A stretch of 60,733 nucleotides of DNA, counting the filler. It is 5 parts of 5 records of this genome, joined end to end, with 100 filler letters (N's around TTAATTAATTAA, not from the genome) between each part and the next. Parts side by side here need not be neighbours in the genome. Positions count along the whole stretch, not along the records: positions 1 to 8,445 come from SRR2962707_2086; 4 more parts are not named here. The stretch is one strand, 5' to 3'. A program made the translations under genes and the position numbers. The stretch's first letter is position 1; each line of letters opens with the position of its first letter. Shown piece after piece: positions 1-58,100 of this stretch. Under the pieces are notes generated by a model. The model saw only the letters and a program-made list of their open reading frames with translations, made no database searches and was not told the DNA's origin.

Positions 1-657
1 GGTGCCATAGACCATGGCCGCATTGGCGCCATTGGTGCCCTGCGCGGCAGCCGCGATGGTGGCCGCAGTGTCACCACCCGAAAGAGTGATCAACTGGTCG
101 GGCGAGAGGGTGAAGCCATACACTTCCTGGAATTTGGGCAAAGCGGCCGGCGAGTTCACGAACTCGGCAGAAGCTGCCAGCACCACTTCGCCACCACCGG
201 CAACATATTCGCCGAACTGGGTGAAGGTATCCAGGCCATTGGCCTCGGCCATGTCCTGACGGATGGCCACGGCCCAGGTGTTGTTGGCGGGCGACGGCGT
301 CAGCCAGACGATCTGGTTGGCGTCGTAGTCGAGCTTTTTGGCTTCTTCATAGGCCGACTGGGCATTGTTCCAGAGCGGATCATCGGCCCGTTCAAAGAAG
401 AAGGCCGCATTGCCGGTATATTCGGGATAGATGTCGATCTCGCCCGCGGTGATGGCTTCGCGCACAATCGGCGTGCCACCGAGCTGGATCCGGTCTTCGA
501 CCGGAATGTCGTTGGCTTCGAGCACCTGCTTGATGATGTTGCCAAGAACACCGCCCTCAGTGTCGATCTTGGACGAGACGACCACCTGTGCCTGCGCGGC
601 GGTCATGGTCAATGCGAGTGCGGTGGCCGCACCCAATAGCGTTTTCGTTAGGCGCAT
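1..657 (-). CDS. osmF: OsmF/YehZ-family (glycine betaine/quaternary amine) ABC transporter substrate-binding protein, 3'-truncated by window edge
   Basis: Not in the ORF track. Manual translation from ATG at 657 (AAGGAGAG RBS upstream) gives signal peptide MRLTKTLLGAATALALTMTAAQA followed by VVVSSKIDTEGGVLGNII...GEIDIYPEYTGNAAFF, typical of YehZ/OsmF. Confidence 0.88.
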   Translation of the reverse strand, partial: MRLTKTLLGAATALALTMTAAQAQVVVSSKIDTEGGVLGNIIKQVLEANDIPVEDRIQLGGTPIVREAITAGEIDIYPEYTGNAAFFFERADDPLWNNAQSAYEEAKKLDYDANQIVWLTPSPANNTWAVAIRQDMAEANGLDTFTQFGEYVAGGGEVVLAASAEFVNSPAALPKFQEVYGFTLSPDQLITLSGGDTAATIAAAAQGTNGANAAMVYGT

Positions 658-712
658 GACTCTCTCCTTTGTGAGCCGGAAGTTTCCGGCTGTCCCTACC
701 CTGTAACCACTG

Positions 713-2296
713 TCAGTTCATGACAGTGGTTGGTTCAGTCCCCGTCTGTGGGCCGAGTGCAAAATACTCGTCCAACTCCATAATGGCGGAATGTAAAATC
801 AGTTCGCCAACAAAGTCATCGGACGCCAGAGCCGCTTCCACCGCCTCGACTTCTGCCGAGAGCGGACGGTCCTCGCGATAGAAGGCGGCGTGCCGGCGCA
901 CCAGCTCATAGACCATGCCCGGTACATTGCCCGGCGTGTCCCCCGAAATGTCCATGGCCTGGGCGGCGAGCAACCCCTCAAGGGCCGCCAGGCGTCGCAG
1001 GGCGCCCGCCTGACGTTCGAAACGCTCGACGACCAGCGGGAGAAAGGCCGCCTCATCCTCAAGACCATTGGCGACCACGAGAGACTGCGCGGAGATCGCA
1101 TTCGAAAGCGACAGGCAGCGCACGTACAACTCACCCGCCAGCTTGATGATTGGTCCAAACCCGGTTGCGATCGCCCCCGGCGCCACCAGGTTGACCGGCA
1201 GGTCCCGTCGGCCACCATTGCCCAGAAGCACGCAGCGATTGAAGGAATTGCGGGCCACATGGGCCAGCGCTAATTGGGCGGTCTGCAGAAACACCGTGAC
1301 ATCGAGCGGCAGCGAGCCGCCTGAGGTGAGCACCTGGCCGCCGGCGACCACCGGATTGTCGTCGGTGCGGCCCGTCGCAGCCAGAACTGTGCGGCCAGCA
1401 ACGGTCAGGCTTTCAAAGGCGGTGGCAAACACCTGGCTCATCATGCGGATCGAGAGCGGGTCCTGGACATGGGTGCCCGTGGGCCAGTCCCAGCCCATGG
1501 CGTTGAAATAGAGCCAGGCACCGACACCGGCCTCGCGCTCGGTGCCGACATGGGCCACCGCTTTCCAGGGATCGCGCGAGGCGCCCAGCGCCCCGGCCGT
1601 GGTCAGGCCGGTTGCCAGCAGCACGCGCACCGTGGTGGCGGCCTGGCGAATGGCCCGCATGGCGGCCGCATAGCCGACCGCATTGGTCGAGACCGAAGCG
1701 AGGCTGTCGCGCGGCGCCAGCTTGAAAGGCTTGAGGCCGGCGCGCGCCATGGCCTCGGCGGCCGGCAGACGCTCGCCGGAGTGGTAGGCTTCCCCAACCC
1801 CGGTCAAGACAGCGCCGATTTGCCCCATCAATCCGATATCGGCGCAGCCAATCGAACCCGTACGGCGCACGACCGGGATGACGTCCGCATCAAGCAGCCT
1901 TTGGAAGGCCGAGACCAGCTCAGGTGTGCAGCCGACGCGCCCGGTCAGGGCCATGTTGATCCGGATCGCCAGGGCGTTGCGGACCACCTCAAGCGGAAAG
2001 GCGCTGCCCGTGCCGAAGTGGTGGGCGCGCACCAGGCCCGTACTGAAGGCGTCAAGCTCTTCCTCGGACCAGGAAATATCCTTCATCGCCCCCACACCAG
2101 TGGTGGCCCCATAAACTGGCTGCCCGGAACTGATGGCGTCTTCCATGACTTCGCGGGCCTTGTGCACGCGCTCAAGCGCGGCGGGCTCGGGAACAATCAA
2201 CGCGCGGCGGGAGCCGATCCGGACATAATCAGCAAAGCTGAGTGGCTTGCCGTCAAGCCGGATCGTGTCGGTCGGTATGGTGATTTGCGCGTTCAC
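713..2296 (-). CDS. Aromatic amino acid lyase (HAL/PAL) family protein lacking the MIO motif; ergothionase-like ammonia/trimethylamine lyase
   Basis: Motifs PVYGATTGVG, QDPLSIR and TDDNP fit the HAL fold. GSIGCADI replaces GSxGASGD. Start set at GTG 2296 downstream of AAGGAG; the ORF track extends it to 2359. Confidence 0.8.
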   Translation of the reverse strand: MNAQITIPTDTIRLDGKPLSFADYVRIGSRRALIVPEPAALERVHKAREVMEDAISSGQPVYGATTGVGAMKDISWSEEELDAFSTGLVRAHHFGTGSAFPLEVVRNALAIRINMALTGRVGCTPELVSAFQRLLDADVIPVVRRTGSIGCADIGLMGQIGAVLTGVGEAYHSGERLPAAEAMARAGLKPFKLAPRDSLASVSTNAVGYAAAMRAIRQAATTVRVLLATGLTTAGALGASRDPWKAVAHVGTEREAGVGAWLYFNAMGWDWPTGTHVQDPLSIRMMSQVFATAFESLTVAGRTVLAATGRTDDNPVVAGGQVLTSGGSLPLDVTVFLQTAQLALAHVARNSFNRCVLLGNGGRRDLPVNLVAPGAIATGFGPIIKLAGELYVRCLSLSNAISAQSLVVANGLEDEAAFLPLVVERFERQAGALRRLAALEGLLAAQAMDISGDTPGNVPGMVYELVRRHAAFYREDRPLSAEVEAVEAALASDDFVGELILHSAIMELDEYFALGPQTGTEPTTVMN

Positions 2297-2346
2297 GTCG
2301 TCCGGGTCTCCTTGCAAGGGCGACGCTATTGGAAAATTTTGGACCA

Positions 2347-2358
2347 TGGGATATCCCA
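2347..2358. promoter_or_regulatory. Perfect palindrome TGGGATATCCCA in the divergent lyase/LysR intergenic region; candidate regulator site
   Basis: 12-bp perfect inverted repeat between two divergent starts (2296 and 2425). Confidence 0.35.
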
Positions 2359-2424
2359 AAAGCTGAACAGGCTATGTTCTATCTGTGGGCACGCCGGTTG
2401 AGTGCTCAACAAAGAGGCATCGAG

Positions 2425-3585
2425 ATGGACACTTCGACCTTGCTCCTGGTCGATATTGTTTTGCACCAGCGTAGTCTGCGCGGCGCAGCGCGGCATTCCG
2501 GCCGCCCTGCATCGAGCATCGCCGCGGCCCTGGCGCGCTGCGAAAGCGCGTTGTCGACCAGTCTTTGCCAGCGGGCCGGCTCGGGACTTGCCTTCACCCT
2601 CGAAGCCAATCGTCTCGCTCCATCGATCGCCGAGGCAGCCCAATTGGCGCGCTGCCTCTACGCCGCCGGGACCGATCCTTTCGCATCCACCGTCAGACTG
2701 CAAGCGCTGGGACGATTTGTTGAAGTGGCCGAACGCGGTTCCATCCGGCAGGCGGCGCGCGCGTTGATGCTGGGACAGCCCCAATTGTCCAGGCAGTTGG
2801 CCCATCTCGAAACCGCCCTCGGGCACAAGCTGCTCGAGCGGGGCACCGGGGGGACGGTGCTGACGGCAACGGGCGTGCGGCTCCGGGACGATTGCAGCCG
2901 ATTGCTGCAGCTCTGGGGGCAGATCTCGAGAACTTCCGAGGACCGGTTTCGCCGCGCCCAGTCCACCGTCAGGCTGGGCTCGATCATGCCGCTTGGCTAT
3001 GAAAGCGAGATCGCCCGGCAATTGGCCAAGCTGACGGCGAGTTGGGCCATGACCCGCCCCAAGCAACCGCTGTTCATCAGTTCCACCACGGCCGAGGAGC
3101 TGTTGCGGGGGCTCAAAAGCGGCGCTTTCGACGTGGTGCTGCTCGATACCGAGAGATTGCCCGAAGATCTTGAGGGCGCGCCCATAGCCGCGTCGGGCCT
3201 TGCCATTGTCGGCGCCAAAGGCACGGACATTGCCGCAGCGCTGCGAGACCGGCCGATTGCTTTGCCCAGTCACCGCAGCGGGTTGCGGCTGCGCATCGAC
3301 ACGCTTTTAGACATGACCTTCAGCGACGCCGAAAGAGACCAGCTGACCCTGCTCGAGATCGATTCCATTCCGGTCATACTCAACCTGGTGCTGCATTACG
3401 GCTTTGTCTCCGTCCTGCCGCTGGCTTCGGTCGCTTCGATCCGCCCGGACTTGCACTCTATCCCTCTGCCTTCGGCATTTGACATGCAATACTGGCTTTG
3501 CTGGCTCAAATCAGCGGGGCGCTCGGCGGCCGGAATGGCGGTGCTTGAAGCGATCGAGCGTGCAACCATGCCCGCGCGCCATTGA
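2425..3585 (+). CDS. LysR-family transcriptional regulator with two tandem N-terminal HTH domains
   Basis: HTH1 RSLRGAARHSGRPASSIAAALARCESAL and HTH2 FVEVAERGSIRQAARALMLGQPQLSRQLAHLETALG, then a substrate-binding domain. GAGG RBS before ATG 2425. Confidence 0.85.
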   Translation: MDTSTLLLVDIVLHQRSLRGAARHSGRPASSIAAALARCESALSTSLCQRAGSGLAFTLEANRLAPSIAEAAQLARCLYAAGTDPFASTVRLQALGRFVEVAERGSIRQAARALMLGQPQLSRQLAHLETALGHKLLERGTGGTVLTATGVRLRDDCSRLLQLWGQISRTSEDRFRRAQSTVRLGSIMPLGYESEIARQLAKLTASWAMTRPKQPLFISSTTAEELLRGLKSGAFDVVLLDTERLPEDLEGAPIAASGLAIVGAKGTDIAAALRDRPIALPSHRSGLRLRIDTLLDMTFSDAERDQLTLLEIDSIPVILNLVLHYGFVSVLPLASVASIRPDLHSIPLPSAFDMQYWLCWLKSAGRSAAGMAVLEAIERATMPARH

Positions 3586-3625
3586 TTGTGCCTGCTAGGA
3601 GCGCCGGACAAGGAGAACATGTGCC

Positions 3626-5017
3626 ATGACGAAGACCTTTGATGCGATCATCATCGGAGCGGGTCAAGCTGGTCCGCCCTTGGCAGCGCGCTTGACGGCG
3701 GCGGGCCGAACCGTCGCGCTGATAGAACGCGAACAGGTCGGCGGGACTTGCGTCAACACGGGCTGCACCCCGACCAAGGCATTGGTGGCCAGCGCAAAGA
3801 TCGCCCATTCGGTTGCCCATGCCAAAGAATACGGGATCAGTATCGGGGCGCCCCCGGAGGTTGATTTCAACGCCGTGCTGCGCCGTGCCATGGCAATCAG
3901 TGCCAAGTCCCGCAGTAGTGTCGAGGCCTGGCTGGACGGCATGAGCGGGCTGTCGCTGGTGCGCGGCCATGCGCGCTTTACCGGGCCCAAGCGCATCAGC
4001 GTGGGCGGCGACAGCTATGAGGCGGATCAGATTTTTCTCAATGTCGGCGCGCGTGCCGCCATTCCCGATATGCCAGGTCTGGATCAGGTCGATGTGCTGT
4101 CCAATTCGGACCTGTTCTGGCTCAAGGAGCGCCCCGAGCATCTCGTGGTTGTCGGCGGCAGCTATATCGGGCTCGAGTTTGCGCAGATGTTCCGGCGCTT
4201 CGGGTCTGGTGTCACCATTGTCGAGCGCGGGCCGCATCTGGCCGGCAAGGAAGATGCAGAGATTTCCGAGGCGATCCGCGCCGTGCTGGAAGCCGAAGGC
4301 ATTGCGGTGCGGACCAATGCCGAGTGTATCCACTTTTCGCGCTCGGAGACCGGGCCCGTGGTGGGGGTGGACTGCACATCCGGTGAACCCGAAATTGCCG
4401 GCTCCCATATCCTGCTTGCGGTCGGCCGCCAGCCCAATACCGACGATCTGGGTCTCGAACAAACGGGGGTGGAACGCGACAAGCGCGGCTTTGTCCGGGT
4501 CAATGATCGTCTGGAAACCAACATCCCCGGCATCTGGGCCCTGGGAGACTGTAACGGGAAAGGCGCCTTCACCCATACCTCGTATAATGACTTTGAGATT
4601 GTTGCGTCCAACTTGCTCGATGGCGGCGCCCGCAAGGTCTCGGACCGTGTCATGAGCTACGGTCTTTACATTGACCCGCCGCTGGGCCGCACCGGGCTGT
4701 CGGAGGCCGAGGCCCTCGCGAAGGGCCACAAGGTCCTGACCGGCAAACGCCCGATGACCCGGGTGGGCCGCGCCGTCGAAAAGGGTGAAACGCAAGGTCT
4801 GATGAAGATTGTCGTCGACGCCGATACCCGCGCAATCCTGGGCGGCGCGATATTCGGACCGGGGGGCGATGAAGCGATCCATTCCATCCTGGACATGATC
4901 CAGATGGGAGCAAGGGTCGATGCGCTCACCAACACCATGCACATCCACCCCACGGTCGCTGAATTGGTCCCCACCATTGCGGGCGAACTGGCCCCTGCTA
5001 TAGACGCAAGGCAGTAG
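3626..5017 (+). CDS. FAD-dependent pyridine nucleotide-disulfide oxidoreductase (class I; MerA/Lpd-like)
   Basis: GAGQAG FAD motif, GGTCVNTGCTP redox disulfide, GGSYIGLE NAD(P) motif and C-terminal HPTVAE. Confidence 0.9.
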   Translation: MTKTFDAIIIGAGQAGPPLAARLTAAGRTVALIEREQVGGTCVNTGCTPTKALVASAKIAHSVAHAKEYGISIGAPPEVDFNAVLRRAMAISAKSRSSVEAWLDGMSGLSLVRGHARFTGPKRISVGGDSYEADQIFLNVGARAAIPDMPGLDQVDVLSNSDLFWLKERPEHLVVVGGSYIGLEFAQMFRRFGSGVTIVERGPHLAGKEDAEISEAIRAVLEAEGIAVRTNAECIHFSRSETGPVVGVDCTSGEPEIAGSHILLAVGRQPNTDDLGLEQTGVERDKRGFVRVNDRLETNIPGIWALGDCNGKGAFTHTSYNDFEIVASNLLDGGARKVSDRVMSYGLYIDPPLGRTGLSEAEALAKGHKVLTGKRPMTRVGRAVEKGETQGLMKIVVDADTRAILGGAIFGPGGDEAIHSILDMIQMGARVDALTNTMHIHPTVAELVPTIAGELAPAIDARQ

Positions 5018-5081
5018 GGGCCGCCTTTACAGCCGTTCCGGGCCCAGCCTCAAGCTCTGCGAATCGGGATAGGTTCGGCGC

Positions 5082-5693
5082 ATGGTGGATCATCTTTGTC
5101 ACGCAGGGGCCGGTCGGGACGCGCAGGAGCGGGTGCTGGTCGAGATTCTGCGCGGACAGCCGCATCTGATGGCAATTCTGGAAGGCATGCAGGCGCTGGA
5201 CCTGCCTGATCCGCTGCTGGGATCGGGTGCGATCTACAACACTGTCTGGAATGTGCTGACCGGGCGGCCGGTGCTGACGGGCATCAATGATGCCGATGTG
5301 GTCTATTTCGACGATAACGATCTCAGCTATGAGGCTGAGGATCGGGTGATCCGGCGCGTGGAGCATCACTTCCGCGACCTGCCGATACCTGTGCAGGTGC
5401 GTAATCAGGCACGGGTGCATCTGTGGTTTCCAGAGCGGTTCGGCATGGCCTATCCGCAATTGCACTCGAGCGCCGAGATGATGCTGTTTTTCGCGACCAG
5501 GACGCATGCTGTGGCGGCGCGGCTCGAGCCGGATGAGACGATATCGATCCACGCGCCCTTTGGGCTCGATGACATGTTTTCATTCCGGGTGACGCCCAAT
5601 CCGGCCTTGCCGAACCGGGAGACGCATGAGCACAAGGCGGCGCGCGCCAAGGCGATCTGGCCCGAATTGAGCGTAGTGCCATGGCCGGACTAG
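5082..5693 (+). CDS. DUF925 nucleotidyltransferase-family protein
   Basis: GAIYNTVWNVLTG, DADVVYFD, VRNQARVHLW and APFGLDD motifs. Confidence 0.8.
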   Translation: MVDHLCHAGAGRDAQERVLVEILRGQPHLMAILEGMQALDLPDPLLGSGAIYNTVWNVLTGRPVLTGINDADVVYFDDNDLSYEAEDRVIRRVEHHFRDLPIPVQVRNQARVHLWFPERFGMAYPQLHSSAEMMLFFATRTHAVAARLEPDETISIHAPFGLDDMFSFRVTPNPALPNRETHEHKAARAKAIWPELSVVPWPD

Positions 5694-5874
5694 AGGCAGT
5701 TTCGTCTGCTTTGCTCGCTATGAGGCCTGCGGCGGCCGCACACCCAGCCTGCTCGATTCAACGGACTTAGCTCTCGCTCAGTCCTATCTCGCTTCCCTGC
5801 CCACAAGTGGAGGAGAGGCAGGAGCCGATGTCTTAGGCACAGGGTTTTGACCAGACACGGTTCGGCTTGGCGCC

Positions 5875-6288
5875 TCAGGGCGTCGGTTCGATGACCACCG
5901 AAGGGGCGGAGCGGGTGCTGGGGCCGTGGAAGACGGCTTCGATATTGTTGCCATCGGGATCGAGCACGAAGCAGGCGTAATAGCCAGGATGATAGTAGCG
6001 CTCGCCGGGCGCGCCATAGTCCGTGCCGCCGGCGGCGAGGGCCGCCTTGTGGAAGGCGTCGACGGTTTCGCGGTCCTTGGCCTGGAAAGCCAGATGAATA
6101 TGGCTGGGGGTCGCGCGGGCATCGAGCCCGTCGACAAACAATTCATCGACCTGGAACCAGCCCTCGCCGCGCGCGGTGATGGCAATGCCGAGAACCGCCA
6201 GGGTGTTTTCGTAAAAATGGCGGGCAGCGGCGACATTGCGGGCGCGCAGATGCACGTGATCGATGAGCCGGCCGGTGTGAAATTGCAT
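5875..6288 (-). CDS. VOC/glyoxalase family protein
   Basis: GRLIDHVHL, HLAFQA, FHKAALAAGGTDYGAPG and YYACFVLDPDGNNIEAV. Confidence 0.9.
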   Translation of the reverse strand: MQFHTGRLIDHVHLRARNVAAARHFYENTLAVLGIAITARGEGWFQVDELFVDGLDARATPSHIHLAFQAKDRETVDAFHKAALAAGGTDYGAPGERYYHPGYYACFVLDPDGNNIEAVFHGPSTRSAPSVVIEPTP

Positions 6289-6373
6289 CAGGAACTCCAG
6301 GTGAATTGGGCAAAACAAAACCGCCCGGACAATGCCCGAGCGGCTGGACGGGATCCGTCAGCAATATTCTGGT

Positions 6374-6859
6374 TTATTCGGCTTCGTCGGCCGGGGCCGA
6401 ATTGAGCTGGCCGTATTTTTCCGCGCCGATCTTGTCGAGCAGTTCGAGCTGGGTTTCCAGGAAGTCGATATGACCTTCCTCGTCGGCCAGCAGCTCCTCG
6501 AACAGGTTCTTGGAGACATAATCGCCCAGCTCTTCGCAGAGCTCACGGCTGGCCTTGTAGGCCGCGCGGGCGTCATATTCGCCGGCGAGGTCCGCCTCAA
6601 GCACTTCCTTGATGGTCTGGCCGATGCGCAGGGGGGCGACCCGCTGCAGATTGGGGTGGCCTTCAAGGAAGATGATGCGCTCGATGAGCTTGTCGGCGTG
6701 GTGCATTTCTTCAATGGATTCGGCGCGTTCCTTGGACGCGAGGCGCTTATAGCCCCAATCGTCCAGCAGGCGGTAATGCACCCAATATTGGTTGACTGCG
6801 CCGAGCTCGAGGAAAAGGGCCTCGTTAAGCCGCTCGATGACTTGTGCTTCGCCTTTCAC
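6374..6859 (-). CDS. bfr: Bacterioferritin
   Basis: GTG start at 6859 (GGAG RBS), 161 aa. Motifs [18 protein letters not shown] and [10 protein letters not shown] are ferroxidase/heme ligands. Confidence 0.95.
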
Positions 6860-7136
6860 GACGTACTCCGTTCCGTTGCTTTTTGAGCTTTTCCAGCCCC
6901 GACTGGAGTTCGACCAGTTCGGCAGGCTGATGGGCTTGCTGTGCGTGATAATTTTCGGTGACGCGGACGATAATGTCCACCACATTCGGCACACAGCCGG
7001 AGCATTTCGCACGTCGATTGAGTTCTGCATAGACCTTTGCAGGCACAACAAGCTGCCACGGATCGGCCTTGAGGAGGTCGAGCACGATATCCTCGATCTC
7101 TCTCGAGGTGATCATATTGCACTGGCAGACAAGCAT
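6825..7136 (-). CDS. bfd: Bacterioferritin-associated ferredoxin (BFD-like [2Fe-2S])
   Basis: MLVCQCN...KCSGC cysteine pattern; directly upstream of and overlapping bfr. Confidence 0.88.
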
Positions 7137-7168
7137 GGCGGGGCTATATCAGGTTCTCAACGGGCGGG

Positions 7169-7202
7169 AATAAACGCCGCTCATTCCTGAATGTCAACGT
7201 CA
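7169..7202 (-). promoter_or_regulatory. Sigma70 promoter of bfd-bfr overlapped by a TGA-N9-TCA (IRO/RirA-like) box
   Basis: Minus strand TTGACA (7197-7192), 17-nt spacer, TTTATT (7174-7169). TGA-atgtcaacg-TCA lies at 7188-7202. Confidence 0.55.
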
Positions 7203-7312
7203 TAAATTGCCACGCTGTTCAACTTTGGCGGCGCGTTGGCCGGCTTGGATGCGGCGCGAAACTCATTGCGGGCTGCTGCGTAATTAAGGGACACAGTCCC
7301 GGGAGCAGACCG

Positions 7313-8176
7313 ATCCAATTCGCAGATATCATCAGTGCACTGGTCCCCAAGGACAGAACATCGCGACGCGTTGCCGGCGGATTGTCCTATGGTGCGGGAC
7401 CTCGCCGGAAACTCGACCTGTACGGGCCACGCCAACGCGGTGAGGCACCCCTGCCGGTTGTGGTGTTCTTCTATGGCGGCGCGTGGAACTCGGGCAGTCG
7501 CACCCATTATGGCTTTGCCGCGCGGGCGCTGGCGGCAATGGGCTATCTGGTCGTGGTGCCGGACTATCGGCTGGTACCGGAAATCGAATATCCCGCATTT
7601 GTGAAGGATTGCGCGGCGGCCATGGCCTGGGTCAGCGATCATATCGCCGCCTATGGCGGCGACCCGGCGCGCCTGGTTCTGGCCGGACATTCGGCCGGCG
7701 CCTATAATGCCGCCTGCCTGGCGCTCGATCCGCGCTGGCTGGGGCCTGAACTGCGCAACGCGATAGTGGGCCTGATCGGCCTTTCCGGTCCCTATGATTT
7801 CTATCCTTTTGACGGGCCGATATCGCAACGCGTTTTCGGCAAGGCCGATAATCCGCGCCAGACCCAGCCGATCAACCATGTCGGGCCCGATGCGGTGCCG
7901 ACGCTACTGGTCAGCGGTGGGCGGGATCGATTGGTGCTGCCGCGCAACAGCGTCAATCTGAGCGCGGCATTGCAGGCGTTCGGCGTGCCGGCAACGCTGC
8001 GGCTCTATCCTCGCCTCGGCCACGCCGGCATCTTGTTCTGCCTCAGCCTGCCACTGCGCTGGATGGCGCCGGTGCTGAAGGATTGCCGCGCCTTTCTGGC
8101 TGAAGTCACAAATCCCGGGATGGGGCCGGGCGATCCGACCGCGCCGGAGCATCGCGCCGCAGCCGCGCGGCAATGA
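7313..8176 (+). CDS. Alpha/beta hydrolase (HSL/BD-FAE-like esterase); start uncertain
   Basis: FFYGGAW oxyanion loop, GHSAG nucleophile elbow, D..V and GH. The first standard start is TTG 7382, but the frame stays open and homolog-like back to ATC 7313. Confidence 0.82.
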   Translation: MQFADIISALVPKDRTSRRVAGGLSYGAGPRRKLDLYGPRQRGEAPLPVVVFFYGGAWNSGSRTHYGFAARALAAMGYLVVVPDYRLVPEIEYPAFVKDCAAAMAWVSDHIAAYGGDPARLVLAGHSAGAYNAACLALDPRWLGPELRNAIVGLIGLSGPYDFYPFDGPISQRVFGKADNPRQTQPINHVGPDAVPTLLVSGGRDRLVLPRNSVNLSAALQAFGVPATLRLYPRLGHAGILFCLSLPLRWMAPVLKDCRAFLAEVTNPGMGPGDPTAPEHRAAAARQ

Positions 8177-8445
8177 CGGCCGCCGAGGCGGCGGTGCGAT
8201 GGGCCGAGGAAAAGAATTCGCGATGCGCCAGGATCAGCACGGTAACCAGGCACGCCGCAATCGCCAGCCATTCGGACACGAACCAGGCAACGGTAGCGAC
8301 GGAAAAATAATAGGCCCGGATGCCGGAATTGAAATTGCGGGCACCCAGCCCGTTCATCTGGGCGATGGCGTCAATTTCTTCTTCAGTGGCGTCCCGATCA
8401 TGTTCGAGGGCGCCGAGCATGATGCAGAAATGGTTGAACTGGCGC
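8106..8445 (-). CDS. DUF599 family membrane protein, C-terminal fragment
   Basis: RQFNHFCIMLG...NFNSGIRAYYFS..WF..ILAHREFFS; 5' part lost at the contig end. Confidence 0.75.
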
Positions 8446-8545
8446 NNNNNNNNNNNNNNNNNNNNNNNNNNNNNNNNNNNNNNNNNNNNTTAATTAATTA
8501 ANNNNNNNNNNNNNNNNNNNNNNNNNNNNNNNNNNNNNNNNNNNN
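8446..8545. other. Artificial contig spacer
   Basis: N44-TTAATTAATTAA-N44 with stops in all six frames. Confidence 0.98.
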
Positions 8546-9303: not shown

Positions 9304-9867
9304 CTACTTGCAGGCGTCGCCGATCTTGGTCAGCGCTGCGGACGAGCCTTTCAGTGAATAGGTGTCGGTGGTCAGCGTGTCGCGCTCGGAAGTCCCCTTG
9401 ATTTCCATGGAGCTTCCGGCTTTCAGCGCCTGCACCATCTTGCCTTCTTCGGAGGGGTTCTCGAGCCAGGCCCAGAACTTGTGTTCGCCGCCTTCCTTCA
9501 CGCCGGAAAACATCTGGAACTTGTCGGTGTCGATGGTGGCGAAGGGGCGGCTCGTCGACTTGAAGGGATAGCCGACCCGCATACTCACTTCATTCTTGGT
9601 GTTGCGCGCCGGGCGGTGCGTCACCATGAAGTAGACGTCGCCGCGGCTCGCGCCCGACGGGGCCATCTTCGTCGGCGTCGTCATCGCATAGCACATGCGG
9701 TCATTGCCGGACCCGTAGGTATAGGCCGACCAGTCGTCGTATTTGCCAAGGAGCTTCGGCGCGTTCTGCGCGCTTGCCGCTCCGGCCATGGCCGCCACAC
9801 CGAAGGTGAGGGCGATGGCTGCGATTGCAAAAGTCAAAGTCGAGGAAAGAAACGAACGTCTCGGCAT
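9304..9867 (-). CDS. Invasion-associated locus B (IalB)-like exported protein
   Basis: Signal peptide, LGKYDDWSAY..CYA and GTSERDTLTTDTYSLKG; position upstream of rlmN is typical of Alphaproteobacteria. Confidence 0.75.
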   Translation of the reverse strand: MPRRSFLSSTLTFAIAAIALTFGVAAMAGAASAQNAPKLLGKYDDWSAYTYGSGNDRMCYAMTTPTKMAPSGASRGDVYFMVTHRPARNTKNEVSMRVGYPFKSTSRPFATIDTDKFQMFSGVKEGGEHKFWAWLENPSEEGKMVQALKAGSSMEIKGTSERDTLTTDTYSLKGSSAALTKIGDACK

Positions 9868-10170
9868 GATCTCCAACTCTTCTTCGAACGGGCAGTCCGA
9901 ACGATCCGGCCCCGGGATTCGCGCCTGACCTTAACGGCACAAGCTCCCGATTTCCAGACGCGGCCCCGAAAAGTCCCCCTCATCCGGCTGAGGGCACAGC
10001 CGGAAAAAGGGCAAGCTCCCCGATTCATGTGGCGGAACCATGGCAGGCCCGGCCCCCGGCCGGTCCTTCGCTCCGCCAATCTGGCGAATATCGGCCTCAT
10101 CGTGCTAAGGGAGATGCAGCGATATTTCAGAACCGCGGGCTACCCGCGCGAAGCAACAGGGGAGACGACC

Positions 10171-11175
10171 ATGAAAGCCGTTCTTTGCAAGGAGTATGGG
10201 CCGCCGGACAGCCTCGTCATCGAAGATGTGCCGAGCCCCGAACCCAAAAAGGGCGAAGTGCTGCTTGAGGTTCATGCGGCCGCCGTCAATTTCCCGGACG
10301 TCCTCATCATCGAGAATAAATACCAGTTCAAGCCGCCGCTGCCCTTCTCGCCGGGCGGCGAGGTGGCCGGCATCATCAGGAAGGTCGGCGAAGGCGTCAC
10401 CAAGGTGAAGGTCGGTGACCGGGTCATCGGCTCTTGCGGCTGGGGCGGCTTTGCGGAAGAAATCGCGCTGGACGAGGCGCGCGTGACACCGATCCCGGAC
10501 GAGATGGACTATGTGACGGCGTCGGCCTTCCTCATGACCTACGGCACCTCGCATCATGCGCTGAAGGACCGGGCGGCGATCAAGCCGGGCGAGAGCCTGC
10601 TGGTGCTCGGCGCTGCGGGCGGCGTCGGCCTCGCCGCCGTCGAGCTCGGCAAGGCGATGGGCGCGCGCGTCATTGCCGCTGCCTCGTCGGAAGACAAGCT
10701 CGCCGTCTGCAAGGAGCATGGCGCGGACGAAACGCTTCTCTATCCCACGGGCGCGCTCGACCGGGACCAGCAGAAGGCGCTGTCGGAACAGATCAAGGAA
10801 CTGACGGGCGGGCAGGGCGCCGATGTCGTCTATGACCCCGTCGGCGGCGATTATTCGGAAGCGGCGCTGCGCGCAACCAACTGGGAAGGGCGTTTCCTTG
10901 TGGTCGGCTTCGCGGCCGGTCCGATCCCGAAAATCCCGCTCAATCTCGCGCTCCTCAAGGGCTGCCAGATCGTCGGCGTGTTCTGGGGCGCCTTCACGGG
11001 CCGGGAGCCGAAGCGTCATCAGGAAAACCTGAAAGAACTGCTGGCCTGGTTCAAGGTGGGCAAGCTCAAGCCCCATGTCTCCAAGACCTACAAGTTCGAG
11101 GAAGCGGCGCAGGCGCTGAAAGACATGGCTGCCCGCAAGGTCAAGGGCAAGATCGTCATCGTTCCCTCGCGTTGA
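10171..11175 (+). CDS. NADPH:quinone oxidoreductase (MDR/zeta-crystallin family)
   Basis: MKAVLCKEYGPP, NFPDVLIIENKYQ, PFSPGGEVAG, GAAGGVG and GKIV. GGAG RBS before ATG 10171. Confidence 0.92.
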   Translation: MKAVLCKEYGPPDSLVIEDVPSPEPKKGEVLLEVHAAAVNFPDVLIIENKYQFKPPLPFSPGGEVAGIIRKVGEGVTKVKVGDRVIGSCGWGGFAEEIALDEARVTPIPDEMDYVTASAFLMTYGTSHHALKDRAAIKPGESLLVLGAAGGVGLAAVELGKAMGARVIAAASSEDKLAVCKEHGADETLLYPTGALDRDQQKALSEQIKELTGGQGADVVYDPVGGDYSEAALRATNWEGRFLVVGFAAGPIPKIPLNLALLKGCQIVGVFWGAFTGREPKRHQENLKELLAWFKVGKLKPHVSKTYKFEEAAQALKDMAARKVKGKIVIVPSR

Positions 11176-14717: not shown

Positions 14718-14817
14718 NNNNNNNNNNNNNNNNNNNNNNNNNNNNNNNNNNNNNNNNNNNNTTAATTAATTAANNNNNNNNNNNNNNNNNNNNNNNNNNN
14801 NNNNNNNNNNNNNNNNN
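14718..14817. other. Artificial contig spacer
   Basis: N44-TTAATTAATTAA-N44. Confidence 0.98.
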
Positions 14818-19287: not shown

Positions 19288-19794
19288 ATGACACGGATTT
19301 CGAAACTTACCCTAAGCACTGCAATGTTGGTTGGCACGATGTTTGGCGGCGCGGCCCTAGCAGCCGATAACGAAACAGTGGATCATACAGAGGTCGGATC
19401 GCTTAGCTGTGATGTAGGCGACGGCAGCGGTTTCATCGTTGGCTCGAGCCGCGAACTGACCTGTATCTTTAACCCCGTCGAAGATGGTCAAGCAGACGAA
19501 AAATATGTCGGCGAGATCAACCGCTGGGGTCTGGATATCGGCGAGACGCAAAACGGCCAGATGTCATGGCTTGTTCTGGCACCAACCGAGTCCGAATATA
19601 GCGAAGGCGGGCTGAACGGATCTTACAAGGGTGTATCTGCCGAAGCGACATTTGGTGTTGGCCTTGGCGCGAACGTCATGACCGGCGGTTCTGAAAACAC
19701 GCTGGCGCTGCAACCCGTAAGCGTGAACACCCAAAACGGCATCAACCTTGCTGTAGGTGTGGGCGAGATCAACCTGACCCGCGTCGACGGCTAA
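19288..19794 (+). CDS. DUF992 domain exported protein
   Basis: Signal peptide, GSLSCDV..G.GFIVGSSRELTC and GLGANVMTGG..ALQPVSV. Confidence 0.85.
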   Translation: MTRISKLTLSTAMLVGTMFGGAALAADNETVDHTEVGSLSCDVGDGSGFIVGSSRELTCIFNPVEDGQADEKYVGEINRWGLDIGETQNGQMSWLVLAPTESEYSEGGLNGSYKGVSAEATFGVGLGANVMTGGSENTLALQPVSVNTQNGINLAVGVGEINLTRVDG

Positions 19795-19818
19795 ACCCAG
19801 CGAACATTTTACGAACAG

Positions 19819-19843
19819 AGGGCGGCGATGTGCCGCCCTTTTT
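19819..19843 (+). terminator. Rho-independent terminator
   Basis: AGGGCGGC-GATGT-GCCGCCCT followed by a T-run. Confidence 0.7.
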
Positions 19844-19856
19844 CGTTCTCGTGCAC

Positions 19857-20321
19857 CTACCCCAGACGCTTTTCATACCGCCACGCATTGATGGTATGTG
19901 GCCCGTCTTCGGTTTCCACCTCGTAGGGAACCGTCGCAGCCAGAACCCAGCCGGATTTTTCATAGAAACGGGCCGCGCGGTCATTGCCAACCAAACAGGC
20001 CAGCCATTTCAACCCGTCACCCAATGCGGCCTCCGCATTGGCCATCAGGTCACGCGCGGTGCCTGATCCTTGGAAATCCGGCGCGACGTAGAACTGATAA
20101 AGCTCGTCACCCTCAAGCATAAAGAACCCGGCCATCTGCCCATCAATCCAAGCGACCTGCGTCTGCTTCAAATGCGCCGTGGTTCGGGTCAGAAACTCGT
20201 CCGCTGTGCGCTGCTTGGTCAGTGATTGCGGTGCGGCCGCACCATGCCCCTGCATCCACCCGTGACGCCACAACGCCGCAATCGCGGGGATATCGTCAGA
20301 TACTGCGGGTTTTACATCCAT
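19857..20321 (-). CDS. GNAT N-acetyltransferase
   Basis: QFYVAPDFQGSG and GNDRAARFYEKSGW. Confidence 0.88.
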   Translation of the reverse strand: MDVKPAVSDDIPAIAALWRHGWMQGHGAAAPQSLTKQRTADEFLTRTTAHLKQTQVAWIDGQMAGFFMLEGDELYQFYVAPDFQGSGTARDLMANAEAALGDGLKWLACLVGNDRAARFYEKSGWVLAATVPYEVETEDGPHTINAWRYEKRLG

Positions 20322-20430
20322 TAATCTGTTCTCCTGCACGTTTGGACCACGCTGGCTGGTGCTGGCCCATTGATCAAGTCTTATCAGGTGCTAAAGTACG
20401 GCAAAATAACTAGGCAGTATATTACAGCTC

Positions 20431-21444
20431 ATGACGGCCCTCACGAAATACGCGCGCATCGAAGCGACGGGCCTTTGGCGTGCCGACCCCAAAGATCAAC
20501 GTCGCGAGGTCATCGTGTCAATCGGGGACGCGACGCTGGTGATTTCGGATATGAAGGACCAAGCGATCGCGCATTGGTCGCTTGCCGCGGTGGCGCGCGC
20601 AAACCCCGGCATACGTCCTGCGATATTTCACCCCGACGGCGACCCCGCCGAAACGCTCGAGATCGCAGACACCCACAGCGAGATGATCGATGCCATCGAA
20701 ACCCTGCGCCGCGCAGTCGAACGCAACCGCCCGCATCCGGGGCGTTTGCGCCTGATCGGTGTGCTGGGGTCCATCTTTACGGTGGTCGCCTTGGCGCTGT
20801 TCTGGCTGCCCGGTGCCATGCAAGATCACACGCTAAAAGTCGTGCCAAAGGTGAAACGCGCCTCGATCGGGATCGCATTGCTGCGCCAGATCGAACGGGT
20901 GTCCGGCGTGGCCTGCACCAACCCGCGCGGCCGCGCCGCCCTGGTCAAGCTTGGCACGCGCCTATCAGCGGGGCCGTTGACGGTGTTGCCCGCCATGACC
21001 CGTGACAGCATCCACCTGCCCGGCGGGTTGATCGTGCTGAACAAAACCATCTTTGAAGACTATGAATCCCCCGACGTTGCCGCCGGTTTCATCCTGTCCG
21101 AAGTCGTCAAACGCGCGCAAAGCGACCCGCTGCGCGACATGTTGGCCGACCTCAGCCTGCGCGAAAACTTCCGCCTGCTCACCACAGGCGAGATTTCCGA
21201 ACCCGCTCTCAAAGACTATGCCGAGACGCTGATGGCGGCGCAGGACACGCCAGCGCCGGTGGGCCAACTCTTGGCACGGTTCAATGACGAACGGCTGCAC
21301 AGTACCCCCTATGCAGAAGCGCTTGATATCACTGGCGAAACGACACTGGCCCTGATTGAAGGCGATCCCATGGCGGGTCAGGATACCGATCCACTGATCA
21401 ACGATTCCGATTGGCTGCGCCTGCAAAACATCTGCGGCGGCTAA
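20431..21444 (+). CDS. Conserved membrane protein with a degenerate peptidase M48-like C-terminal region
   Basis: N-terminal soluble domain, one TM, then LPGGLIVL..PDVAAGFILSE, aligning with the M48 LPGG/AGVLAHE region but with no HExxH. Confidence 0.55.
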   Translation: MTALTKYARIEATGLWRADPKDQRREVIVSIGDATLVISDMKDQAIAHWSLAAVARANPGIRPAIFHPDGDPAETLEIADTHSEMIDAIETLRRAVERNRPHPGRLRLIGVLGSIFTVVALALFWLPGAMQDHTLKVVPKVKRASIGIALLRQIERVSGVACTNPRGRAALVKLGTRLSAGPLTVLPAMTRDSIHLPGGLIVLNKTIFEDYESPDVAAGFILSEVVKRAQSDPLRDMLADLSLRENFRLLTTGEISEPALKDYAETLMAAQDTPAPVGQLLARFNDERLHSTPYAEALDITGETTLALIEGDPMAGQDTDPLINDSDWLRLQNICGG

Positions 21445-28414: not shown

Positions 28415-28514
28415 NNNNNNNNNNNNNNNNNNNNNNNNNNNNNNNNNNNNNNNNNNNNTTAATTAATTAANNNNNNNNNNNNNNNNNNNNNNNNNNNNNN
28501 NNNNNNNNNNNNNN
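28415..28514. other. Artificial contig spacer
   Basis: N44-TTAATTAATTAA-N44. Confidence 0.98.
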
Positions 28515-53302: not shown

Positions 53303-53402
53303 NNNNNNNNNNNNNNNNNNNNNNNNNNNNNNNNNNNNNNNNNNNNTTAATTAATTAANNNNNNNNNNNNNNNNNNNNNNNNNNNNNNNNNNNNNNNNNN
53401 NN
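53303..53402. other. Artificial contig spacer
   Basis: N44-TTAATTAATTAA-N44. Confidence 0.98.
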
Positions 53403-55162: not shown

Positions 55163-58100
55163 TTAGAATGACTGAAACATGAATCCGTCAAGGCTATCAA
55201 CAACGCGCTGTACGACTATGAACAACTCGGGGGACAGTGCATGGGTGGGCGGCAATTCTGACTGAGAGTCAGCCTGAACGTTCTGACTTTCCTGCACAAG
55301 CTCTTTCAAAGCATCGCTCAGCATGTGCAAAACTTCACGAGGTCTAATGCGTTGATAAGCATACCCGTGGTGCACAGAGCCTTCGCGTGCATGATGAGGT
55401 GGACCGTCGGGGTCCTTGCACAAATACACAATACACCCACGAGCGTCAGTCGCCGAGATCCACTTCCGAACCGAGTCTTGTTTATCTGTGGCAAGCGCCA
55501 AAACTATTGCCAAGACGGGAAATCCAAGATTAAACAGGCACTGCAATGCTTGCTCAAGTCCCAGACTTGCATTCGCCAACTCATCGTTCGTTTGCCGTGA
55601 TTTGTTCCGTTCCTCCTCCGTTGAGAACCGGATGACCAACTGGCAGGCAGCCTCGAATATTGCAACCAACGCGCCAGGTCTCACCGATCTATGAATTTCA
55701 ATTTTTGCTGCAGCCTGAGCACTTTCACTTGGGATATGCTTGCCAGGATCACTTGGTGGTGGCCTACCAGCTAAGCGTGCAGTACTTTCAAATAATTTTT
55801 CTGAGCCACTTAGTCCACCAGCCGCCGTGCTCAACTGTCGTAGCAACGTAGAAAGTGACGCATCGATGTTGGTGTGATAATGCGTGCACGTACTCGCCAA
55901 CGAAGTAGCCCGTTTCAATCGTTGCAGCGCCGTTCCAATGTTTATCAAATGTCGCAGGCACTCATTCACATGCGCGCTCGTCGAAACACACAGTGCACAA
56001 AGTGCTTCTGTGCTTGCAGCACTCGCAGACGGAGTCCCAGCAACCTCCCCAAACAAGTTCGAAGCAGCAAGGTGGCGTGCTGCGTACGGCAAACACACCA
56101 ACAAAGACGAAGACTGTGAAGCGCAACCAAATGATGCAGGCACACCCCTTGAATTGCCGGCAGCTCTGCTGCCTTTGGCTCGACCGAACGGAAAGCCCCT
56201 TTCAAGGCAAGTTCTGTAAAGCAACAGAAGATCGGCATAGTAGTTCTGCATGGAATAAGCAAAATTGTGCCCAAATGGAGGCACAGCCGGTCGTTTCTTG
56301 CGTCGTTGGTCGTTGAACGCTTTGTTTGAAGCGGTTTTGCCACTTGTACTGAGACGTGTGGGCTTGAGAACCCCCCCGTTCTCATCATCGGGGGTCTGAG
56401 ACAAGGTCAGAAACGTGGGATTGCACACACAGTGCAGCAGCAGGTTGGCACAGAGAACAGCTTGCTCAAAATGGCCTCGGCGGAGACACCAATGAAAAAT
56501 ATGCATTGGTGTCGGGTTTTCGAAGCAGGGTTTAAACAAAATTGGCCAATGAACAGCCGGGTCGATCTTCCGCGCGCAGGTCACAAGGGTGTGAATAAAC
56601 AAATAAGAAAGGTTGTCTGCATGCGGTTCGTGATTGGCAGAATCACAAGTTTTGTTCTCCATCGTCAAATGAGCGCTTCGAATGACACGAAGAGCTGCCC
56701 GAAGGAACTTATCGGAGTTGGTTGCGTCATCGGCTGTGGTGGGCGGGCTACCGTGATTGCCATCAGCAGTATGCGAAACATGATTACGTGTAGAACGCAA
56801 CCGGACATCTACAGCATGATAGAGCAGCATTTCCAGTGCGTAGCCTAGGGCAGGAGCGCCGGTTCGAAACGCCCGTTGAACCATTGCTTGTGCAACTTGC
56901 ACATGGCCGCCCGCAATAAGGGCTGCAAGCAACGCATGGAAGCAAGGTTGAAGTGTTGCGCGAAGTTTCCAACGTGGCAGAGGTCGTAGTCGAGCCGCAG
57001 GGTCAGGTGTTTGGCTTTCGTGGGGAAAACGAGCTTGGAATCCCCTTGGTCGTTCATCGGGCCTGTGCTGGCGCACAGCCCGCACTCCTACAAGAGCAAC
57101 GACCCCAGCAAGAAACCCAACAGAGTGCCAGTTTGAGCTCCATGCAATACTTGAAGCTTCTTGAATCGCAGCTTGACTTGGACTTGACTCTTGCAAGTGC
57201 ACAGATGGCACAGAGAGCAATTGCGGCCAATGAAAATGTACGCGTTGCTGTGCACGTTGAGAAACTCCTGGCACAGCAATGCCAGGTTTGTTTCCAGTGG
57301 ACTGGTGACCGTTGACACTGCTTTTGAGCAATGCAAGACATCCGCTTATTCGGCCAAGTGGACTTGATTGTGGTAACGTCCAAACCTCTTCGTTGAACCA
57401 AGATGCGACACCACATTTCAACAGCTTGACTTGAACCCAAGGTGCCAGTCCATCATCATCTCGATGCCGCCACCAGAGATATTGCTGGGCAGCTGCTCCA
57501 AAACTTCGGAAGAAAAGAAATTTTGCTCCTGGACTCACTCGACAGATTACAGGCGCTAGGAAAAGTTTCAAGGTTTCTGGGAGCAGGTTACACAACGGTG
57601 CAATTGGAATGTGCGTGGCATGATTCGCGTCAGCCGGAACACGTCCACGCTGGCACTCCACCATCAGAGCTTCAGGCCGACCCATTCGAACAAGTCTGAG
57701 ACTGGCAAACTCATCGTCATCACCACTGTTCAAGTTTGGAGCGAACAGTTTGACTTTGAACATTTCAAACCCCAGAGTCGAAAACGACACAACGACGGTT
57801 CCATCCTCCACACACAGCGAAACAGGCTCACCAGTGCTTGCAAGATCAATAGTCGCGCGATCAAGGTGCAAATTCGTGTTGGCACGCCTGTTTAAATGCC
57901 CCCGATCGCTCGGAAATGTCGCACCAGCAAAAACTACGTCATCGGGGTGCACTTGGTCATTGGACGACTCCTCGTCGATAGTAGCCACCAACCCATCACC
58001 TTGCTGCACTGCAAAAACCGACAGCCAAAAACTTGGTCGCCCTGCTTTGGACCTGCGGCAGTGGAGTACTGTGAGCACCAACGCACAGGTCTTTGCCGAA

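Follow-up and report, generated by a model that had tools for sequence, protein, structure and literature searches.

What is the function of a gene that resembles hutH, the gene for histidine ammonia-lyase (HAL), when its product lacks the residues of the 4-methylidene-imidazole-5-one (MIO) cofactor, and when it is followed by a gene for a substrate-binding protein and faced by one for a LysR-type regulator? This question is raised by positions 1-3585 of the DNA analyzed here, a stretch of 60,733 nt made of five pieces (hereafter the window); the finding lies within the first piece, 1-8445. Three genes occupy positions 1-3585, namely those of the binding protein and the lyase on the minus strand and that of the diverging regulator on the plus strand. 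They are read here as the proximal part, regulator included, of an operon by which Devosia very probably imports ergothioneine and degrades it to glutamate. A preliminary description of the window had proposed an uptake-and-cleavage module for ergothioneine or another betaine. The module is supported by the results below, and the substrate narrows, within the limits of sequence evidence, to ergothioneine itself. Ergothioneine is an antioxidant whose lifetime in soil, sea, and gut is controlled by its breakdown, a process that releases trimethylamine and sulfide. The enzyme and the pathway are of known kinds. The importer embedded in the operon and the tandem winged-helix LysR with its candidate operator are the variant.

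The lyase and its active site

The lyase matches the family model PF00221 (E 1.2e-81), and its scores lie far under the cut-offs of both hutH models (196 vs. 539 bits for TIGR01225; 217 vs. 524 bits for the second). As had been noticed in the preliminary description, no Ala-Ser-Gly occurs anywhere in the protein. When aligned at the MIO site, the lyase reads G-S-I-G-C-A-D-I, the ergothionase of Treponema denticola S-S-I-G-E-G-D-I, and the HAL of Pseudomonas putida G-S-V-G-A-S-G-D-L. MIO cannot form in the lyase because one residue is deleted at this site and the triad is absent. Nor are the Asn195 and Tyr280 of HAL present. The alignment places Ser and Leu at these positions, the same residues as in ergothionase. 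The three motifs picked out earlier (G-S-I-G-C-A-D-I, YGATTGVGAMK, and FGPIIK) were recovered exactly on the minus strand (Table 1). The accompanying statement that ergothionases carry a GxADI-type motif needs one correction: the T. denticola enzyme has G-E-G-D-I instead. Among the MIO-less relatives, GxADI occurs more often than any other form.

Which catalytic residues does the lyase carry? Two bioRxiv preprints describe ergothionase as needing a Tyr, the carboxylate binders Gln, Arg, and Asn, the imidazole binders His and Glu, and Lys384 (T. denticola numbering). Tyr54 is described there as the acceptor of the beta-proton, and Lys384 as the essential residue that forms and binds the thiolate. 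The Glu is assigned a role in binding an imidazole nitrogen. All of these have counterparts in the lyase. Y79 (2111-2113) aligns with the catalytic base Tyr54, K89 (2081-2083), 10 residues further on, with Lys64, and K402 with Lys384. The carboxylate binders (Q295, R301, and N331) and the imidazole binders (H109 and E430) are likewise present in the alignment, and the T. denticola Glu that aligns with E430 is residue 412 by our own count. The same preprints give Asn and Gln at the Lys384 position of the histidine-betaine lyases Swoo_3913 and SO_3299, respectively.

Orthologues of the lyase were compared at these positions. A lyase match was found at 70 loci, and the seven partial sequences were excluded, leaving 63 near-full-length orthologues. 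All 63 have the motif G-S-I-G-[C/T]-A-D-I together with the Tyr, both Lys, and the Glu, and every one of them also keeps the ergothionase residues listed in the preprints, apart from Gln295 (61/63). This conservation of a MIO-less motif together with its residues argues against a loss of MIO by chance lesion or decay.

Structural comparison points in the same direction. The best sequence match in the PDB is the T. denticola ergothionase 6S7J (186 bits, E 8.6e-54), and the P. putida HAL comes next (125 bits). An AlphaFold model of the lyase was obtained from 129 aligned sequences with a mean predicted local distance difference test score (pLDDT) of 93.6, residues 1-25 scoring below 50. The superposition suggested in the preliminary description was made with Foldseek against the PDB. 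It returned 6S7J as the closest fold (TM 0.94, root-mean-square deviation 1.8 A, 28% identity), while the HAL 1B8F superposed with TM 0.87 and 2.9 A.

A search of 1.84 billion representative sequences yielded 5308 relatives of the lyase at E <= 0.001; at the stricter limit of E <= 1e-30, 268 clusters were left. The best 150 relatives gave 128 sequences of at least 440 residues, and these, minus one that was misaligned and plus seven derived from the loci, made up the 134 rows of a FastTree phylogeny, in which support is local only and none of the tips is experimentally characterized. True MIO enzymes, with G-A/S-S-G-D-L, Asn, and Tyr, account for 20 rows. MIO is lacking in the other 114, of which 95 carry the Lys and 19 another residue in its place. 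The 20 Ala-Ser-Gly-bearing rows form one clade (support 100). The lyase falls in a separate clade of 20 rows (support 100, stem 0.68), all of them MIO-less with Lys at the Lys384 position. The grouping with MIO-dependent HALs that would have counted against the earlier proposal was thus not found.

Taken by its residues and fold, and by its place outside the MIO clade, the lyase is a predicted ergothionase (ergothioneine trimethylammonia-lyase). It shares the MIO-less HAL fold with the ergothionases of T. denticola and of Burkholderia sp. HME13 (ErtA). The likeness to the T. denticola enzyme extends to the one-residue deletion at the MIO site, the Tyr, the Lys at +10, the Leu in place of HAL Tyr280, the Lys, and the Glu. 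The two differ at the MIO site itself (G-E-G-D-I vs. G-C-A-D-I) and in overall sequence, as seen from the identity given above. The Shewanella ergothionase SO_3057 is a MIO-less HAL homologue that keeps the Lys, as the lyase does, whereas SO_3299 and Swoo_3913 are MIO-less betaine lyases without it. The Shewanella lyases are described as exported, periplasmic enzymes coupled to flavocytochrome reductases in anaerobic respiration. By inspection, the Devosia lyase has no signal-peptide-like N-terminus, and it would feed an assimilatory, hydrolytic pathway. Import of the substrate would therefore be required, unlike in the periplasmic Shewanella enzymes.

The open reading frame of the lyase spans 713-2359 on the minus strand, with its stop at 713-715, and offers two likely starts. 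GTG 2296 would give a protein of 527 residues and is preceded, at a 10-nt spacing, by AAGGAGA (2313-2307). No ribosome-binding site stands before ATG 2347, and this codon overlaps with a conserved palindrome (discussed below). Devosia orthologues are mostly 514-526 residues long, and the stretch from one candidate start to the other is conserved at the level of DNA at loci whose proteins begin later. The spacing of the ribosome-binding site, the lengths of the orthologues, and this DNA-level conservation make GTG 2296 the likelier start, although the NCBI gene model of a 97%-identical lyase uses the longer form.

These results bear on how the family is named. As had been foreseen for automated annotation, relatives of the lyase are publicly named 'histidine ammonia-lyase' or 'aromatic amino acid lyase', so that a large family of MIO-less lyases still carries the HAL name. 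Of the five pathway steps, NCBIfam covers the last four with models and has none that catches the first. Surveys concluding that ergothionase is rare rest on name searches. Devosia and its relatives show the predicted ergothioneine pathway to be common within one soil and marine lineage at least.

The operon, its pathway, and rival readings

What follows the binding-protein gene beyond the left edge of the window? A contig from a Devosia sp. metagenome-assembled genome (locus L001) is colinear with 1-8445 at 97.8% identity and without gaps. Its gene order is lyase, binding protein, permease, ATPase, permease, ErtD, ErtE, thiohydantoin desulfurase, and thiourocanate hydratase. The leftward extension proposed in the preliminary description thus brought in the expected permeases, ATPase, and hydratase, plus three other pathway enzymes. 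All four enzymes exceed the cut-offs of their NCBIfam equivalog models: the hydantoin-5-propionate amidohydrolase ErtD (788 vs. 600 bits), the N-carbamyl-L-glutamate amidohydrolase ErtE (589 vs. 520 bits), the thiohydantoin desulfurase (598 vs. 440 bits), and the thiourocanate hydratase (1048 vs. 930 bits). The corresponding S-methyl-specific models stay under their cut-offs (751 vs. 880 and 282 vs. 450). With the lyase, these enzymes make up the complete known five-step ergothioneine pathway. The ErtA-E catabolic pathway was reportedly established by Muramatsu and co-workers and by Beliaeva, Leisinger and Seebeck in 2021. The enzyme set is the same here, with four of the five steps assigned by equivalogs in L001. 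The difference lies in the four-gene YehZYXW-type importer between the first step and the rest, and in the diverging LysR; published figures of ert clusters may already depict transporters or regulators.

The arrangement was followed in a scan of genomes that gave 67 loci, 66 from Devosia or close relatives and one from Microvirga. Because the former are close kin, the loci do not represent independent events. Of the 66 loci that leave 1 kb or more of room downstream, 64 have the binding-protein gene directly after the lyase gene, which bears out the linkage on which the earlier proposal depended. In the other two (Pelagibacterium montanilacus and Devosia ureilytica), ErtD follows the lyase directly. 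All four transporter genes lie between lyase and ertD in 54 of 57 loci. Where room allows, all four ert genes are present at 44 of 47 loci, one of the remaining loci having three and two having none. L026 (Devosia epidermidihirudinis) has the lyase and transporter with no ert gene found in 9.9 kb downstream, L025 is without an ErtD match, and L066 yields fragments only; these gaps may be effects of assembly or masking, or real losses.

More independent evidence comes from outside the Devosia group. Microvirga has the same gene order with a lyase that is only 37% identical. On a replicon of Ochrobactrum quorumnocens, LysR and the four transporter genes stand on one side, and the lyase gene is grouped with ErtD, ErtE, ErtC, and ErtB on the opposite side. 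No transporter adjoins the cluster in Shinella, which has the LysR, the lyase, and the ert genes, or in Rhizobium sp. SL42, where the same genes occur with the LysR-like one between lyase and ErtD. On the plasmid of the Rhizobium strain (L068), a globin-family gene and a GntR regulator follow the ert genes at 19426-20722.

From these genes, a working scheme can be proposed. The OsmF/YehZ-type periplasmic protein would capture ergothioneine and deliver it to a permease-ATPase-permease set of the YehY/YehX/YehW type. In the cytoplasm, the MIO-less lyase would remove trimethylamine and leave thiourocanate. Tyr79 would abstract the beta-proton, Lys402 would keep hold of the ring in its thiolate form, and MIO would be unnecessary because the leaving group is a good one. 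Thiourocanate hydratase, thiohydantoin desulfurase, ErtD, and ErtE, encoded downstream, would complete the five-step route. The two-winged-helix LysR probably binds the palindrome TGGGATATCCCA and would switch the operon on in the presence of ergothioneine or thiourocanate.

Several observations weigh against this reading. The subclade of the lyase has no characterized member in the tree of 134 rows, and the sole solved ergothionase, 6S7J, is just 28% identical to it. The pathway genes lie outside the window and were read from the related strain L001. L007 and L013 (both Devosiaceae), Shinella, and Rhizobium sp. SL42 have the pathway without an adjacent transporter, and 47 of the 63 Devosiaceae loci with room upstream are without the LysR. 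The equivalog passed by the binding protein names it a glycine betaine binder, and its similarity to the proven ergothioneine binder EgtU is distant (101 bits). The contacts of EgtU with ergothioneine include G244, F293, T296, E375, and R379 (EgtU preprint). When motifs are matched by eye, the binding protein appears to have D, Y, and N at three contact positions (K-I-D-T-E for K242-I243-G244-x-E246; E-Y-T-G-N for F293-x-x-T296). Lastly, a catabolic route for ergothioneine sulfonate has been reported from Agrobacterium radiobacter, and a Lys could hold a sulfonate too.

Could the transporter be an ordinary low-affinity importer of glycine betaine or other osmoprotectants that merely sits inside the operon, with ergothioneine entering by another way? 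We regard this as unlikely. It accords with the OsmF equivalog score of the full-length L001 binding protein (303 residues; NF049931, 494 vs. cut-off 400 bits), with the glycine betaine transporter name that RefSeq gives to E. coli OsmF-YehYXW, and with the ert clusters that have no adjacent transporter. The near-constant placement of the four genes between lyase and ertD speaks against it, as does their linkage to the pathway a second time, in another arrangement, in Ochrobactrum.

Improbable, too, is a lyase that acts on an oxidized or alkylated relative of ergothioneine (ergothioneine sulfonate, S-methyl-ergothioneine, or selenoneine) in an operon serving that compound. In its favor, a route for the sulfonate that employs an ergothionase-like lyase is reported from A. 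radiobacter, a relative within Hyphomicrobiales, S-methyl variants exist to the extent that NCBIfam keeps separate models for them, and the clade of the lyase (G-C-[A/G]-D) is distinct from the T. denticola type (G-E-G-D-I). The downstream enzymes speak against it: for both hydratase and desulfurase, the cut-off is exceeded with the plain model (thiourocanate and thiohydantoin, respectively) but not with the S-methyl one, and a desulfurase that releases sulfide fits a thione substrate. It is still harder to accept that the lyase is a histidine betaine (hercynine) trimethylammonia-lyase feeding ordinary urocanate catabolism, a very improbable reading to which its lack of MIO and its kinship with Swoo_3913-type enzymes lend something. 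Those enzymes have Asn or Gln where the lyase and its 63 orthologues all have Lys, and the neighboring genes encode thiourocanate-specific equivalogs and a desulfurase rather than HutU and HutI. That the gene is a true or decayed hutH, as public names and the shared Pfam family would have it, is extremely improbable given the missing triad, the scores far below the hutH cut-offs, Ser and Leu at Asn195 and Tyr280, a clade apart from the Ala-Ser-Gly-bearing rows, and conservation across 63 orthologues that argues against decay.

The importer and its stand-alone relatives

The proposed import of ergothioneine by this operon raises the question of what the transporter is related to. Within the window, the fragment of the binding protein matches PF04069 (E 1.2e-31) and the OsmF model NF049931 (353 bits) and begins with a signal-peptide-like N-terminus. 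The binding protein scores 475 bits against 4ND9, 471 against 5TEU, and 352 against E. coli OsmF (4WEP). We take 5TEU/5UVE to be a Brucella abortus protein and 4ND9/4NE4 an Agrobacterium protein. The four genes stand in the same order as E. coli osmF-yehY-yehX-yehW, with identities of 55, 41, 47, and 54%. By order and similarity, the importer is thus best assigned as a YehZYXW orthologue and not as EgtUV. The EgtUV system of Helicobacter pylori and Streptococcus pneumoniae belongs to the same OpuAC/cluster-F superfamily and shares the aromatic cage for trimethylammonium. In EgtU, residues 233-506 form the binding domain and are part of a longer chain, a permease according to the preprint, whereas the Devosia system has a free periplasmic binding protein, fused to no permease, and two separate permeases; the contact residues differ by eye, as described above.

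E. coli OsmF-YehYXW and the alphaproteobacterial YehZ proteins (4WEP, 4ND9, and 5TEU/5UVE) have the same gene order as the Devosia importer, whose binding protein passes the OsmF equivalog. Their operons stand alone, whereas the Devosia importer is embedded in a catabolic operon. Stand-alone YehZYXW systems have been described as low-affinity glycine betaine systems or as systems without a known ligand (as cited in PMC8371380). Stand-alone orthologues of 58-78% identity occur on many large replicons, with 145 records in the plasmid collection. On pSymB of Sinorhizobium meliloti (S. meliloti), a YehZ-type operon diverges from a flavoprotein gene at 9313-10683 of loci L070/L071, whose product is 60% identical to that of 3626-5017 in the window, with an OsmC gene nearby. 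In Ketogulonicigenium, the operon lies among genes for a sigma factor, a histidine kinase, PRC-barrel proteins, and a catalase. The Paracoccus operon adjoins genes of the proline racemase and dihydrodipicolinate synthase families, an FAD-binding oxidoreductase, and an aldehyde dehydrogenase, a neighborhood read as hydroxyproline catabolism. That of Azospirillum follows pqq genes.

Are the ert-linked binding proteins a branch of their own? A specialized paralogue clade was considered and rejected, since linked and stand-alone proteins interleave in a tree of 64 linked and eight stand-alone sequences. Its well-supported branches cannot be reconciled with fewer than two changes of label, and the linked protein of Microvirga groups with E. 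coli OsmF and Azospirillum (support 97). Among 63 linked proteins, 133 of the 303 columns have at most one exception. The stand-alone proteins keep most of these columns: 129 of 133 in Shinella, 128 in S. meliloti, 124 in Burkholderia multivorans, 122 in Paracoccus, 121 in Ketogulonicigenium, and 110 each in E. coli OsmF and Azospirillum. To judge from the tree and these columns, the linked binding proteins are ordinary members of the YehZ/OsmF group.

This ordinary membership makes a wider hypothesis worth testing. Could the YehZYXW/OsmF ATP-binding cassette transporters be native ergothioneine importers, including the stress-controlled alphaproteobacterial YehZ systems and perhaps E. coli OsmF-YehYXW? 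We consider this possible, though somewhat short of an even chance. It is supported by the linkage to ert, which arose in at least two gene arrangements, and by the settings beside a flavoprotein and OsmC in S. meliloti and beside a catalase and stress sigma factor in Ketogulonicigenium. The low similarity to EgtU, the three contacts that differ by eye, and the ert clusters without an adjacent transporter speak against it. No link between YehZ/OsmF and ergothioneine transport was found among the openly accessible papers that the search covered; the two that mention both do so in passing. Ergothioneine would be a concrete candidate ligand for a stress-controlled transporter family that is conserved among alpha- and gammaproteobacteria and whose known ligands bind weakly or not at all. 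If the hypothesis is true, bacteria that do not degrade ergothioneine would take up this antioxidant under stress, and a catabolic operon would have been fitted with this importer in Devosia, Microvirga, and Ochrobactrum.

The regulator, its palindrome, and neighboring sequences

The regulator gene diverges from that of the lyase, as the preliminary description had stated, and its ATG at 2425 is preceded by AGAGG. A typical LysR has one N-terminal HTH_1 domain. Two stand in tandem here: an extra HTH_1 (2425-2694) and a canonical one from about 2695, which is followed by the effector-binding domain. Could the extra domain be an artifact of gene calling, with the true start near residue 90? This was considered and rejected. 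The long start appears real because the extra HTH_1 is kept in 19/19 orthologues (down to 39% identity, and including Rhizobium, Shinella, and Ochrobactrum), because the first 90 residues alone match Pfam HTH_1 (27.4 vs. cut-off 26.6 bits), and because NCBI gene models and a confident fold agree with it. The AlphaFold model (pLDDT 90.1, and about 95 for the extra domain) has two winged-helix units of the same topology, residues 1-57 with helix 59-77 and residues 92-146 with linker helix 148-180. Among 89 related clusters at E <= 1e-20, 87, from Hyphomicrobiales, are 367-463 residues long and have the tandem architecture in common; the genera represented by named members are Bosea, Aminobacter, Mesorhizobium, and Rhizobium. 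No account of LysR proteins with tandem HTH_1 domains was met with, though no search aimed at one was made.

The LysR is present at 16 of the 63 Devosiaceae loci with room upstream. In alignments of the divergent region between lyase and LysR, the palindrome TGGGATATCCCA is conserved. Its 10-bp core GGGATATCCC lies just upstream of the lyase at 17 of 19 LysR-bearing loci and at none of 48 LysR-less loci. The core occurs 19 times in 1.28 Mb of loci and once in the whole window. The two LysR-bearing loci without it upstream are those of Shinella, which has a near-match, and Rhizobium sp. SL42 (L068), where the sole copy lies 9.5 kb downstream of the lyase. The co-occurrence of LysR and core marks them as a candidate regulator-operator pair, for which it is good comparative evidence. 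If so, the tandem winged-helix LysR and its palindrome would be a candidate sensor of ergothioneine or thiourocanate and a possible biosensor part.

The features of the first piece are collected in Table 1.

Table 1. Coordinates of the lyase module and the adjoining flavoprotein gene in the window.
Feature	Position	Strand	Remarks
First 219 of 303 residues of an OsmF/YehZ-type substrate-binding protein (OpuAC family), cut by the left edge of the window	1-657	-	PF04069, NF049931
Spacer between lyase and binding protein, 55 nt	658-712	-	Inverted repeat and ribosome-binding site
MIO-less HAL-fold lyase, predicted ergothionase (ErtA-like), 544 residues from ATG 2347	713-2347	-	
E430	1058-1060	-	Aligns with E of T. 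denticola I-E-D-H and of HAL Q-E-D-H
K402 (of FGPIIK, 1142-1159)	1142-1144	-	Aligns with Lys384 of T. denticola ergothionase
MIO-site motif G-S-I-G-C-A-D-I	1835-1858	-	
Y79 and K89 (YGATTGVGAMK)	2081-2113	-	Align with Tyr54 and Lys64 of T. denticola ergothionase
Perfect 12-bp palindrome TGGGATATCCCA, candidate LysR operator	2347-2358	strandless	
LysR-type regulator, 386 residues, two tandem HTH_1 then effector-binding domain	2425-3585	+	
Flavin adenine dinucleotide (FAD)-dependent pyridine-nucleotide disulfide oxidoreductase, CVNTGC redox site	3626-5017	+	NF004992

The spacing between the lyase stop and the ATG at 657 of the co-oriented binding-protein gene agrees with the earlier account. A purine-rich ribosome-binding site precedes this ATG. 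At 674-691, the spacer contains a perfect 8-bp inverted repeat, AGCCGGAA/TTCCGGCT, with arms 2 nt apart. No T-run follows, which makes a terminator unlikely; the repeat may be an element of mRNA processing or stability that sets the ratio of lyase to binding protein. A scan for sigma-70-like promoters gave no matches, and one for terminators gave two, below the shuffled expectation. Rfam and tRNA searches of the whole window gave no matches.

The flavoprotein next to the regulator gene is of the glutathione-reductase type (NF004992, 742 vs. cut-off 629 bits). In the scan of 67 loci it adjoins the module only in L001-L006 and L062, and it may be tied to the transporter rather than to the pathway. 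Reduction of an oxidized form of the imported thiol is a speculative role for it. Positions 5082-8176 encode an NTP_transf_6 nucleotidyltransferase, a glyoxalase-fold protein, a bacterioferritin with a BFD-like ferredoxin, and an alpha/beta hydrolase, with no evident tie to the module.

The other pieces of the window are set off by joins at 8446-8545, 14718-14817, 28415-28514, and 53303-53402, each consisting of two runs of 44 N separated by 12 bases. On the minus strand, 55163-60388 is an open reading frame of 1741 residues for which Pfam gave no match at E <= 1e-5. At 28.5 kb, the G+C content falls from about 58-64% to about 43%. The low-G+C piece (28515-53302) encodes Por_Secre_tail sorting domains of type IX secretion, a pectate-lyase-like beta-helix protein, a GH28 enzyme, a 1544-residue protein bearing a pectinesterase domain, and a TRAP DctM permease. 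It looks like a pectin-utilization locus of a member of the Bacteroidota, an organism other than that of the ergothioneine operon.

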